From assembly GCF_988242995.1 (NCBI RefSeq), contig NZ_OZ547043.1: a stretch of 64,000 bases of DNA; one strand, written 5' to 3'. A program made the position numbers. Of the stretch, positions 47,001-52,087 are shown piece after piece; positions within the stretch are counted from its first letter, which is position 1; each line of letters starts with the position of its first letter.

Positions 47001-50000
47001 GCAGCGTGCTCACGTTTTAACCCAGCCCGGCAAAGTTTATTCTCGATTAGCTGGTGGAGTGTTTCCCGACTGATTTTCATCTGCTGTCCTTTTTAACGAC
47101 GGTGTGAAGCATGACTGCAATTAACATACAGGGAAAATATCTGGATTATGTGATCCAGACAGGCAAAAAAATATAGTTAGAATTTATTTGATAATCATCC
47201 TGCTTTTAGCCTGATTTTTAAAATAACCGCGCTTATTAAAAAATAACGCGTAATAGTCTGGCGGTTATTTGAATTCTTTTGTTAATAATGTCTGTGTGAT
47301 ATTCATCACCTTATTTGCCCGTTGTCATCGATACCGTAATCGCCACATTAACACTGCTCGTGCAATTGCCATGGGTGCAATTTTTAAGGAGTTGTTATGA
47401 TCCACGCCTTTATTAAAAAAGGGTGTTTTCAGGATTCGGTCAGTTTAATGATTATTTCACGAAAACTAAGCGAATCAGAAAATGTTGATGATGTTTCCGT
47501 AATGATGGGTACGCCCGCCAATAAAGCGTTATTAGATACCACAGGTTTCTGGCATGACGATTTTAATAACGCCACGCCGAACGATATTTGCGTGGCAATT
47601 CGTAGCGAAGCGGCGGATGCGGGGATCGCGCAGGCGATTATGCAACAGCTTGAAGAGGCGCTAAAACAACTGGCGCAGGGTTCAGGCAGCAGCCAGGCGT
47701 TGACGCAGGTGCGTCGCTGGGACAGTGCCTGTCAGAAATTACCCGATGCCAGTCTGGCGCTGATTTCAGTGGCTGGCGAGTATGCGGCGGAGCTGGCTAA
47801 TCAGGCGCTGGATCGCAACCTCAACGTGATGATGTTCTCCGATAACGTCACGCTGGAAGATGAAATCCAACTTAAAACCCGCGCGCGGGAAAAAGGCTTG
47901 CTGGTGATGGGGCCGGACTGCGGTACGTCGATGATTGCCGGCACGCCGCTGGCTTTTGCTAACGTGATGCCGGAAGGCAACATTGGCGTCATTGGCGCTT
48001 CCGGTACCGGGATTCAGGAGCTGTGCTCGCAGATTGCGCTGGCAGGGGAGGGAATTACTCACGCGATTGGCCTTGGCGGCCGCGACCTCAGCCGTGAAGT
48101 GGGCGGCATCAGTGCGCTGACGGCGCTGGAAATGCTCAGTGCAGACGAGAAAAGCGAAGTGCTGGCATTTGTTTCAAAACCACCTGCCGAAGCGGTGCGT
48201 CTGAAAATTGTTAATGCCATGAAAGCAACCGGCAAACCGACGGTGGCGCTGTTTTTAGGTTATACCCCGGCGGTGGCCCGCGACGAGAATGTCTGGTTTG
48301 CCTCCTCGCTGGATGAGGCCGCACGCCTGGCTTGCCTGCTTTCACGCGTTACGGCGCGACGTAACGCGATAACGCCTGCCAGCAGCGGATTTATTTGCGG
48401 TTTGTATACCGGCGGTACGCTGGCTGCCGAAGCGGCGGGATTACTTGCCGGACACCTTGGCGTGGAAGCCGATGATGCCCATCATCACGGCATGATGCTC
48501 GACGCCGACGGACATCAGATCCTCGACCTGGGCGATGATTTCTACACCGTCGGGCGTCCCCATCCGATGATCGACCCAACCTTACGCAACCAGTTAATTG
48601 CCGATCTCGGCGCTAAACCGTCAGTGCGCGTATTGCTACTTGATGTCGTGATTGGCTTCGGCGCGACCGCCGATCCTGCCGCCTCGCTGGTGAGCGCCTG
48701 GCAAAAAGCCTGTGCCGCGCGTTCAGACAGCCAACCGCTGTACGCCATTGCCACGGTGACAGGTACCGAACGTGACCCGCAATGCCGCTCGCAGCAAATC
48801 GCCACGCTGGAAGATGCGGGGATTGCGGTCGTGAGTTCGCTACCGGAAGCCACCTTGCTGGCGGCAGCGTTAATTCATCCGCTCTCGCCTGCCACACAGC
48901 AACACACACCGTCATTACTGGAAAACGTCGCCGTGATTAACATCGGATTACGCAACTTTGCGCTGGAGCTACAAAGCGCCAGCAAACCGGTTGTGCATTA
49001 CCAATGGTCGCCAGTCGCCGGCGGCAATAAAAAACTGGCTCGTTTATTAGAACGTTTGCAATAAGGGGTTCCCATGTTTACATCAATGGCGCAAGCCAAT
49101 GCTGCGGTTATCGAACAAATTCGTCGTGCTCGTCCACACTGGCTGGATGTGCAACCGGCTTCTTCACTTATCAGCGAACTAAACGAGGGCAAAACACTGC
49201 TTCACGCCGGGCCGCCAATGCGCTGGCAGGAGATGACCGGACCCATGAAAGGGGCATGTGTGGGCGCATGTCTGTTTGAAGGCTGGGCGAAAGATGAAGC
49301 GCAGGCGCTGGCAATGCTGGAGCAGGGGGAAGTGAACTTCATTCCTTGTCACCATGTGAATGCTGTCGGGCCAATGGGTGGCATTACTTCTGCCAGTATG
49401 CCGATGCTGGTGGTCGAGAACGTGATCGACGGCAACCGGGCGTACTGCAACCTCAACGAAGGTATCGGCAAAGTGATGCGTTTTGGCGCTTACGGCGAAG
49501 ATGTCCTGACTCGCCATCGCTGGATGCGCGATGTGTTAATGCCGGTATTAAGCGCGGCGCTGGGGCGCATGGAGCGCGGTATCGATCTCACCGCGATGAT
49601 GGCGCAGGGCATTACGATGGGCGATGAGTTCCATCAGCGCAATATTGCTTCCTCAGCACTGTTAATGCGTGCGCTGGCCCCACAAATTGCTCGCCTCGAT
49701 CATGATAAACAACACATCGCGGAAGTGATGGATTTCCTCAGCGTGACCGATCAGTTCTTCCTCAACCTCGCGATGGCTTACTGCAAGGCGGCGATGGATG
49801 CTGCTGCGATGATCCGCGCAGGCAGCATCGTCACGGCTATGACCCGCAACGGCAATATGTTCGGGATTCGGGTCAGCGGGCTGGGCGAACGCTGGTTTAC
49901 TGCGCCTGTAAACACTCCCCAAGGTCTGTTTTTCACCGGCTTCTCGCAGGAGCAGGCGAACCCGGATATGGGCGATAGCGCAATTACCGAAACCTTTGGT

Positions 50001-52087
50001 ATTGGCGGAGCCGCAATGATCGCAGCGCCTGGCGTAACGCGCTTTGTCGGTGCGGGTGGCATGGAAGCGGCCAGAACCGTTTCTGAAGAGATGGCGGAAA
50101 TTTACCTTGAGCGCAATATGCAGTTGCAGATCCCAAGCTGGGATTTTCAGGGCGCGTGCCTGGGGCTGGATATTCGTCGCGTGGTAGAAACCGGCATTAC
50201 GCCACTCATCAATACCGGTATCGCCCATAAAGAGGCGGGGATCGGGCAGATTGGCGCAGGCACTGTGCGGGCACCGCTGGCGTGCTTTGAACAGGCGCTG
50301 GAAGCACTGGCTGAAAGCATGGGGATTGGTTGAGGAACGCACAATGACGATCATCCATCCTCTGCTTGCCAGCCGTAGTGCACCGAATTATCGCCAGTCC
50401 TGGCGGTTAGCGGGCGTGTGGCGGCGGGCGATTAACCTGATGACGGAAAGCGGTGAATTGTTAACACTGCATCGTCAGGGTAGTGGTTTCGGCCCCGGAG
50501 GATGGGTGCTTCGCCGCGCGCAATTCGATGCGTTATGCGGTGGATTATGCGGCAATGAACGACCACAGGTTGTGGCTCAAGGGATTCGCCTCGGGCGTTT
50601 CACGGTTAAACAGCCACAGCGTTATTGTTTGCTGCGTATTACGCCGCCTGCGCATCCTCAACCGCTTGCAGCGGCATGGATGCAACGCGCGGAGGAAACC
50701 GGGCTTTTCGGGCCACTGGCGTTGGCGGCAGGCGATCCGCTTCCTGCTGAGTTACGCCAGTTTCGCCACTGTTTTCAGGCCGCGCTCAATGGCGTGAAGA
50801 CCGACTGGCGGCACTGGCTGGGCAAAGGTCCGGGATTAACGCCGAGTCATGATGACACGCTGAGCGGAATGCTGCTGGCGGCCTGGTATTATGGCGCTTT
50901 AGATGCGCGCTCCGGTCGCCCATTTTTTGCCTGTTCCGACAATCTTCAACTCGTTACCACAGCGGTGAGCGTCAGTTATTTACGTTATGCCGCGCAAGGA
51001 TATTTCGCCTCGCCACTCCTGCACTTTGTCCATGCTCTGAGTTGCCCGAAACGTACCGCTGTTGCAATTGATTCGCTGCTGGCGCTGGGGCATACGTCAG
51101 GGGCAGATACGCTGCTGGGGTTCTGGCTTGGTCAACAATTATTACAAGGAAAACCATGAAAACACTGGTTGTAGCTCTTGGGGGCAACGCCTTACTCCAG
51201 CGCGGTGAGGCGCTGACGGCAGAAAATCAATATCGCAATATTGCCAGTGCTGTACCCGCGCTGGCGCGCCTGGCCCGTTCTTATCGGCTGGCGATTGTTC
51301 ACGGCAACGGGCCGCAGGTGGGGCTGCTGGCGTTACAGAATCTGGCGTGGAAAGAGGTAGAACCGTATCCGCTGGATGTGCTGGTGGCGGAAAGTCAGGG
51401 GATGATTGGCTATATGCTGGCGCAGAGTTTGAGCGCGCAGCCGCAGATGCCGCCGGTGACGACGGTGCTGACGCGCATTGAGGTTTCGCCTGATGATCCG
51501 GCGTTTTTGCAGCCAGAAAAATTTATTGGTCCGGTTTATCAGCCAGAAGAACAAAAGGCACTGGAAGCGGCTTACGGCTGGCAGATGAAACGTGATGGTA
51601 AATATTTGCGCCGGGTGGTGGCGTCTCCGCAACCGCGTAAAATTCTCGACAGCGAAGCCATCGAGTTGTTGCTCAAAGAGGGGCATGTGGTGATTTGCAG
51701 TGGCGGCGGCGGTGTGCCTGTGACGAAAGACGGGGCAGGGAGTGAAGCAGTGATTGATAAAGATCTCGCCGCTGCGTTGCTCGCTGAGCAGATTAACGCC
51801 GATGGGCTGGTGATCCTCACCGATGCTGACGCGGTTTATGAAAACTGGGGAACGCCGCAGCAACGCGCCATTCGCCGTGCCACACCGGATGAGTTAGCGC
51901 CATTTGCCAAAGCCGATGGTTCGATGGGGCCGAAGGTAACGGCGGTGAGTGGCTATGTCAGAAGCCGTGGCAAACCTGCGTGGATTGGGGCGTTATCGCG
52001 GATTGAAGAGACGCTGGCGGGCGAAGCGGGGACCTGTATTTCGCTGTAGTCGTAGGCATTAGACATTTGTGCCTGATGCGACGCTTG

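Follow-up and report, generated by a model that had tools for sequence, protein, structure and literature searches.

An intact, K-12-like allFGHK operon that is probably idle through a one-base deletion in allD

We examined the fdrA-ylbE-ylbF-ybcF genes (allFGHK), which serve the oxamate branch of the pathway by which Escherichia coli degrades allantoin anaerobically, in a 64,000-nucleotide (nt) stretch of contig NZ_OZ547043.1 from RefSeq assembly GCF_988242995.1, which we refer to as the window. We are confident that the four genes, at positions 47397 to 52049, make up an ordinary intact operon, as in K-12, and that in this strain the operon is probably idle through a 1-bp deletion in the neighboring gene allD. 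In the list of open reading frames (ORFs) for window positions 44000 to 55000, we found four intact, closely packed, and co-oriented ORFs in this block, as follows.

47397-49064, + strand: fdrA/allF, 555 amino acids (aa), an oxamic transcarbamylase (OXTCase) subunit with a succinyl-CoA-synthetase-alpha-like CoA_binding plus Ligase_CoA fold
49074-50333, + strand: ylbE/allG, 419 aa in one unbroken ORF, an OXTCase subunit, formerly DUF1116
50344-51159, + strand: ylbF/allH, 271 aa, an OXTCase subunit, formerly DUF2877
51156-52049, + strand: ybcF/allK, 297 aa, a predicted catabolic carbamate kinase

For the comparisons with K-12, we used the MG1655 proteins as tblastn queries against the window. 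All four aligned in a single frame and without gaps: FdrA over residues 1 to 555 at 97.8% identity, YlbE over residues 1 to 419 at 98.8%, YlbF over residues 1 to 271 at 99.3%, and YbcF over its full length at 98.7%. An ORF of 419 codons that shares 98.8% identity with a known protein is far outside what chance would give. The nucleotide lengths of all four genes are those of K-12, and each gene contains one stop codon, at its end. All three OXTCase subunit genes (allF, allG, and allH) are therefore uninterrupted in the window. The spacing is also as in K-12, with 9 nt between fdrA and ylbE, 10 nt between ylbE and ylbF, and an ATGA overlap of the ylbF stop and the ybcF start, and a Shine-Dalgarno-like motif precedes every start in the block. 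The ylbF ORF was listed as 50251-51159, from an upstream TTG; the start equivalent to that of K-12 is the ATG at 50344, which has GAGGA ahead of it.

Against K-12, the ratios of nonsynonymous to synonymous substitution rates (dN/dS, Nei-Gojobori) were 0.129 for fdrA, 0.046 for ylbE, 0.028 for ylbF, and 0.067 for ybcF, values that indicate ordinary purifying selection on all four genes. Residue D296 of FdrA, the site of the known activity-enhancing variant D296Y, is unchanged in the window, and a protein identical to the window's FdrA is indexed in 164 blocks of a public assembly collection. We rejected the long antisense ORFs of the block (for example, 49662-50354, - strand, 230 aa, and 51333-51863, - strand, 176 aa) as genes, since they lie opposite conserved orthologues whose dN/dS is very low. 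When the entire window was scanned with Rfam, no match fell inside the four-gene block.

The family and structure matches agreed with these assignments. FdrA matched NCBIfam NF004760 at 1038.6 bits, Pfam PF02629 and PF00549 (CoA_binding and Ligase_CoA), and the PDB entry 3DMY, "Protein fdrA" (E = 1.5e-301); PF27530 (HMA_AllF_N) is among the precomputed Pfam matches for proteins identical to those of the block. YlbE matched Pfam PF06545 at 326.6 bits, a family now named "Oxamate carbamoyltransferase subunit AllG," and the PDB entry 3CLQ, an uncharacterized protein (E = 3e-110). YlbF matched Pfam PF11392 (AllH) at 101.7 bits, and a sequence search found no solved homologue for it. No NCBIfam model matched YlbE or YlbF, whereas Pfam matched both. 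YbcF scored 618.5 bits against the carbamate kinase equivalog model NF006926 (cutoff, 416) and 426.2 bits against a second carbamate kinase model (cutoff, 358.25); the NF006926 and TIGR00746 tests covered residues 1 to 296. Among the carbamate kinases in PDB, 8CRV gave the lowest E value with YbcF (3.6e-89). The block thus holds adjacent, co-oriented genes for AllF, AllG (PF06545), and AllH (PF11392), and the gene after them encodes a carbamate kinase. With full coverage, identities of 97.8 to 99.3%, and the same order beside allDCE, the four genes are orthologues of b0518, b4572, b0520, and b0521.

Previous work in MG1655 established what these genes do. The four genes are cotranscribed, as determined by reverse transcription-PCR, and YbcF, once purified, acts as a catabolic carbamate kinase (PMC9843812). 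Wild-type MG1655 converts 19.5 mM allantoin to 17.7 mM oxamate, whereas the allF, allG, and allH single-deletion mutants yield 0, 0, and 1.2 mM oxamate, respectively (PMC11326118). A triple allFGH mutant was rescued only by allFGH together, and activity needs all three proteins (PMC11326118). Purified AllF-AllG-AllH catalyzes the reversible reaction oxamate + carbamoyl phosphate <-> oxalurate + Pi, with Km values of 1.3 mM for carbamoyl phosphate and 36.9 mM for oxamate (PMC11326118). Expression of the operon requires both AllS and ArcA, which bind fragments at -203/-144 and -142/-83 upstream of allF in electrophoretic mobility shift assays (EMSA); the allFGHK promoter lies in the allD-allF intergenic region, where AllS conveys the allantoin signal and ArcA-P conveys anaerobiosis (PMC12535856).

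In MG1655, AllF, AllG, and AllH thus make up the OXTCase, which phosphorolyzes oxalurate to oxamate, which is excreted, and carbamoyl phosphate. AllK then uses carbamoyl phosphate and ADP to make ATP and carbamate, and the carbamate decays to NH3 and CO2. A preliminary description of this locus, made from the sequence alone, had placed an intact fdrA-ylbE-ylbF-ybcF block with a 419-aa ylbE at 47397-52049, and the ORFs, the tblastn alignments, and the stop codons confirmed these exact coordinates. It had also identified the four genes correctly and linked them to the oxamate branch of anaerobic allantoin catabolism, which is now experimentally established (PMC11326118, PMC9843812). It described that branch as running from oxamate to carbamoyl phosphate; the pathway was right and the reaction was not, since oxalurate and Pi are turned into oxamate plus carbamoyl phosphate.

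The allantoin regulon of the window is collinear with that of K-12, and allS, allA, allR, gcl, hyi, glxR, allW, allB, ybbY, glxK, allE, and allC are all full length. From allS through ybcF, the only gene of the regulon that is not full length is allD, located as follows.

46088-47080, - strand: allD (ureidoglycolate dehydrogenase), frameshifted by a 1-bp deletion

The lesion is the loss of one base from a C5 run, which leaves four G's on the + strand at 46197-46200. The AllD product keeps its native sequence as far as P295, after which it has a 35-aa out-of-frame tail. In the AllD crystal structure, Tyr303, Tyr304, Pro305, and Asp308 are in the NADH adenine/ribose pocket, and the C-terminal helices alpha9 and alpha10 belong to the Domain I helix bundle (PMC3527362). 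The frameshift removes Y303, Y304, P305, and D308 together with helices alpha9 and alpha10. Because these NADH-contacting residues and helices are lost, the truncated AllD is very probably inactive.

AllD makes oxalurate, the substrate of AllFGH (PMC9843812). What the window probably does not provide is a functional AllD to supply the substrate, a requirement of the pathway and not of membership in the AllFGH families. Because AllD supplies this substrate, flux through the oxamate branch is probably lost in this strain. The allFGHK genes would be coding competent but idle, with their oxalurate supply cut by the truncation of AllD; ureidoglycolate would be diverted via AllA to glyoxylate and urea, and the strain would forgo what the oxamate branch normally gives, namely, a third nitrogen and ATP. 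If the lesion is real, this is a natural allD mutant that should not excrete oxamate and should obtain less nitrogen and ATP from allantoin, which is a minor strain-level prediction.

We compared the allD region with that of other assemblies. GCA_964241875.1 agrees with the window at every position (100% identity) across 15,228 bp, the allD deletion included, and its contig stops inside the insertion sequence (IS) found downstream of ybcF; this break inside the IS suggests short-read data. The sister assembly GCA_013357025.1 is 99.98% identical to the window and differs from it by two single nucleotide polymorphisms and the allD indel; it encodes an intact AllD of 349 aa and has no IS. We found the C4 allD allele in none of the complete E. 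coli genomes. Because so close a sister has an intact AllD and no complete genome has C4, the lesion is, as judged from these sequences, recent and private to a sublineage.

We also aligned the promoter region with that of K-12 and placed the fragments bound by AllS and ArcA-P in it.

47081-47396, + strand: allD-allF divergent intergenic region with the allFGHK promoter, aligned to K-12
47194-47253: AllS-bound fragment (-203..-144), placed from the EMSA positions relative to the allF ATG (PMC12535856)
47255-47314: ArcA-P-bound fragment (-142..-83), placed in the same way (PMC12535856)

We found 20 differences from K-12 in the whole intergenic region, with 11 in the 60 nt of the AllS fragment and 4 in the 60 nt of the ArcA fragment. 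The AllS fragment is a polymorphism hotspot, with 7 to 11 differences per 60 nt between lineages among the nine E. coli sequences compared, and only the sister assembly has the same AllS-fragment allele as the window. In all nine, the AT-rich core of the AllS fragment, CTTATTAAAAAATAA, is invariant, as are the last 77 nt ahead of the allF ATG, with their AAGGAG Shine-Dalgarno sequence. The regulation of the window's allFGHK is probably normal, as far as this conservation can tell. A promoter and terminator consensus scan gave fewer matches than shuffled sequence, and it found no convincing intrinsic terminator 3' of ybcF, only repetitive extragenic palindromic (REP) sequence.

The IS lies 39 nt past the ybcF stop codon, where ybcF and purK converge, and it occupies the loop of a REP palindrome.

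52089-53520, - strand: IS1397-like element of the IS3 family, 1432 bp, flanked by a TGA target duplication (52086-52088 and 53521-53523)

Its ORFs encode a helix-turn-helix protein and then an rve integrase, its ends are TG...CA, and the duplication is 3 bp, all as in IS1397. The RefSeq feature name on matching DNA is "IS3-like element IS1397 family transposase." By comparison of the junctions, the empty REP site in the sister genome is GCCTGATGCGACGCTTGACGCGTCTTATCAGGC, with arms GCCTGATGCGACGC-TTGA-CGCGTCTTATCAGGC. IS1397 inserts specifically into REP palindromic units. We considered whether the IS damages ybcF or purK and rejected this, as both ORFs are full length and the IS is outside the coding sequence. 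Independent IS1397 copies are found elsewhere in the ybcF-purK intergenic region of other E. coli strains, for example, 180 nt past ybcF in strain 1105.

Several points weigh against an intact operon left idle by the loss of AllD. The allD deletion sits in a homopolymer, and GCA_964241875.1 may represent the same isolate or the same reads, so that the deletion could still be an artifact; if it is, the branch would work in full, just as it does in K-12. The truncated AllD may retain residual activity, or another dehydrogenase of the Ldh_2 family may make oxalurate. Normal regulation is also assumed here, with an AllS-bound fragment that differs from that of K-12 at 11 of 60 positions.

The first of these points is a rival explanation in its own right, namely, that the allD frameshift arose from an error of sequencing or assembly in a homopolymer and that the pathway works fully, like that of K-12. 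We consider such an error unlikely. One base gone from a C5 run is at a classic error site, the near-identical GCA_013357025.1 has C5, and no complete E. coli genome carries C4. However, the separate public assembly GCA_964241875.1 shows C4 within its 15,228 identical bases, its contig ends inside the IS, as those of short-read assemblies do, and short reads seldom miscall a 5-base run. The index lists two more similar places.

A second explanation is that allFGHK is intact but misexpressed, either through the allele of the AllS site or through the IS1397 element, which splits the REP hairpin and could alter mRNA 3'-end stability or read-through. The 11 differences in the AllS fragment, in an allele common only to the sister genome among the nine, and the position of the split palindrome just 3' of ybcF are consistent with this. 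However, the AllS fragment varies in every lineage sampled (7 to 11 differences) around an invariant AT-rich core, conservation extends over the ArcA fragment and the proximal 77 nt with the Shine-Dalgarno sequence, and the IS is outside the coding sequence in an intergenic region where other E. coli strains also have IS1397. We therefore regard misexpression as very unlikely.

It is highly improbable, in our estimation, that allFGHK is kept for a role independent of AllD, such as the use of oxalurate or related carbamoyl compounds from other gut microbes or a reaction run in the synthetic direction. If there were such a role, this strain, allD-null with allFGHK intact, would amount to a natural separation-of-function mutant. 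That allFGHK is still intact is uninformative about selection here, because the allD lesion is so recent, the sister assembly being 99.98% identical with allD intact.

In E. coli, ylbE is normally intact, and this holds for current K-12 MG1655 as well. In the MG1655 reference NC_000913.3, ylbE (b4572) is annotated as an intact 1260-nt coding sequence, and ylbE is also intact in DH5alpha. In the W3110 RefSeq record NC_007779.1 (3582-4840 of the extracted stretch), ylbE is still labeled "frameshifted." The W3110 and MG1655 genes differ at exactly two places, with A for G at nt 114 and G4 for G5 at nt 250-254 in W3110; the window has G114 and G5, the same as NC_000913.3. G114 and G5 are the two changes reported between the old MG1655 reference and real MG1655 stocks or other K-12 strains (PMC5460176, PMC3045373). 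The old reference differed from the stocks by 547,694 A to G and 547,831 +G (PMC5460176), and the frameshift difference in ylbE of NCM3722 "restored an intact ancestral gene" (PMC3045373).

The legacy G4 allele reaches a stop codon after about 86 codons. Among 5,416 complete E. coli genomes, just 4 contain an exact match to a 60-nt probe for G4; the K-12-type G5 probe has exact matches in 3,910. The G4 carriers are W3110 and strains CIT, LIM, and CAR, all at the same coordinates, which suggests that the latter three are reference-guided assemblies or W3110-type derivatives. The "K-12 pseudogene" ylbE comes down to one base in legacy K-12 records, G4 in place of G5, and because it persists in the W3110 RefSeq entry, it can mislead strain comparisons. 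Of 5,426 complete E. coli genomes, 5,407 carry the 4.65-kb block at 95 to 99% identity and at least 80% coverage. As the best complete-genome match to the block reaches only 98.3%, we considered an origin of the window in Shigella or another species; we rejected it, since the flanking core DNA reaches up to 99.6% with an E. coli genome and draft assemblies of E. coli type reach 99.98 to 100%. Disruptions of allFGHK elsewhere affect differing genes and are found in rare strains only. In NCTC9104, ybcF is 1 nt short (frameshift annotation, 5260-6152 of the extracted stretch) and purK is broken too; in isolate AB104, fdrA is 34 nt longer (frameshift annotation, 1501-3202 of the extracted stretch).

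We give almost no credence to the idea that the intact ylbE provides this strain with an oxamate branch missing from K-12, which the pseudogene in the old MG1655 reference and the frameshift still in W3110 RefSeq would favor, since the current MG1655 ylbE is intact, the enzyme was purified from MG1655 genes, MG1655 makes its oxamate from allantoin in an allG-dependent manner, the G4 allele is so rare, and the strain's own allD is frameshifted. This idea came from the preliminary description, which had taken ylbE to be a K-12 pseudogene. That view holds for the old MG1655 reference and the W3110 record and fails for NC_000913.3, and the branch said to be absent from K-12 is refuted by the intact ylbE of the current annotation, the point on which the description had itself made its proposal depend, and by the oxamate that MG1655 makes. 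The allD frameshift, which it had offered as a contrast to the intact block, is real in the sequence; it is more than a contrast, as the loss of AllD most likely disables the oxamate branch itself. The functional prediction for the strain is most likely reversed, in that this strain, not K-12, is probably without flux through the branch.

The closest characterized system is the MG1655 allFGHK operon (b0518, b4572, b0520, and b0521; Kim & Kim 2022, 2024, 2025), which has the same order, lengths, and spacing and is likewise divergent from allDCE. The window differs from it by 23 aa substitutions in total and 20 nt in the intergenic region, by the IS1397-family element 39 nt downstream, and by the allD frameshift. 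The legacy K-12 ylbE allele (W3110, NC_007779.1) is at the same locus and has G4 and A114 where the window has G5 and G114. K-12 also has yahE-yahF-yahG-yahI, which we take to be paralogues of ylbF, fdrA, ylbE, and ybcF, the same four families in one cluster at another locus, outside the window. AllF shares the CoA_binding plus Ligase_CoA fold of the succinyl-CoA synthetase alpha subunit, whose structures match it with E values from 1e-11 to 1e-5. In contrast to succinyl-CoA synthetase, the activity of AllFGH, as shown in K-12, is carbamoyl transfer and not CoA ligation. AllFGH is without similarity to the aspartate transcarbamylase or ornithine transcarbamylase type of enzyme (PMC11326118). 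Like the classical carbamate kinases (ArcC; PDB 8CRV, 1E19, and 1B7B), AllK matches the equivalog models above their cutoffs and matches solved structures; unlike ArcC, AllK is tied to allantoin and oxalurate catabolism and not to the arginine deiminase pathway (PMC9843812). The allFGHK operon, its enzymes, and its regulation are already known, having been characterized in MG1655 from 2021 to 2025, and the operon is part of the E. coli core genome.

Elsewhere in the window, positions 1 to 15900 encode a giant BapA-related adhesin (siiEA in matching genomes) with a type I secretion ATPase/permease and an HlyD adaptor. K-12 is without this siiEA-like locus here; the locus is present in approximately 961 of 5,426 complete genomes, with a best identity of only 96.4%. 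At 27555-30882, the rhsD-ybbC-ylbH-ybbD-ylbG segment of K-12 is replaced by a gene for a 667-aa fusion of an N-terminal Hcp domain to a Tle1-like phospholipase domain, followed by two tandem DUF2931 genes of about 220 aa each that are near-duplicates. This segment looks like an orphan type VI secretion system Hcp effector with two immunity-like genes. Next to it, selU (30934-32040, - strand) encodes 368 aa versus 364 in K-12, and the K-12 protein aligns only up to residue 362; the last few C-terminal residues differ, since the island boundary at 30955 ends the collinearity with K-12. Above the gathering score, Rfam matched the small RNA STnc480 at 43906-43972 (+ strand), between glxK and allE, and naRNA4 (CssrE, a REP-derived nucleoid-associated RNA) at 18830-18907 (- strand).

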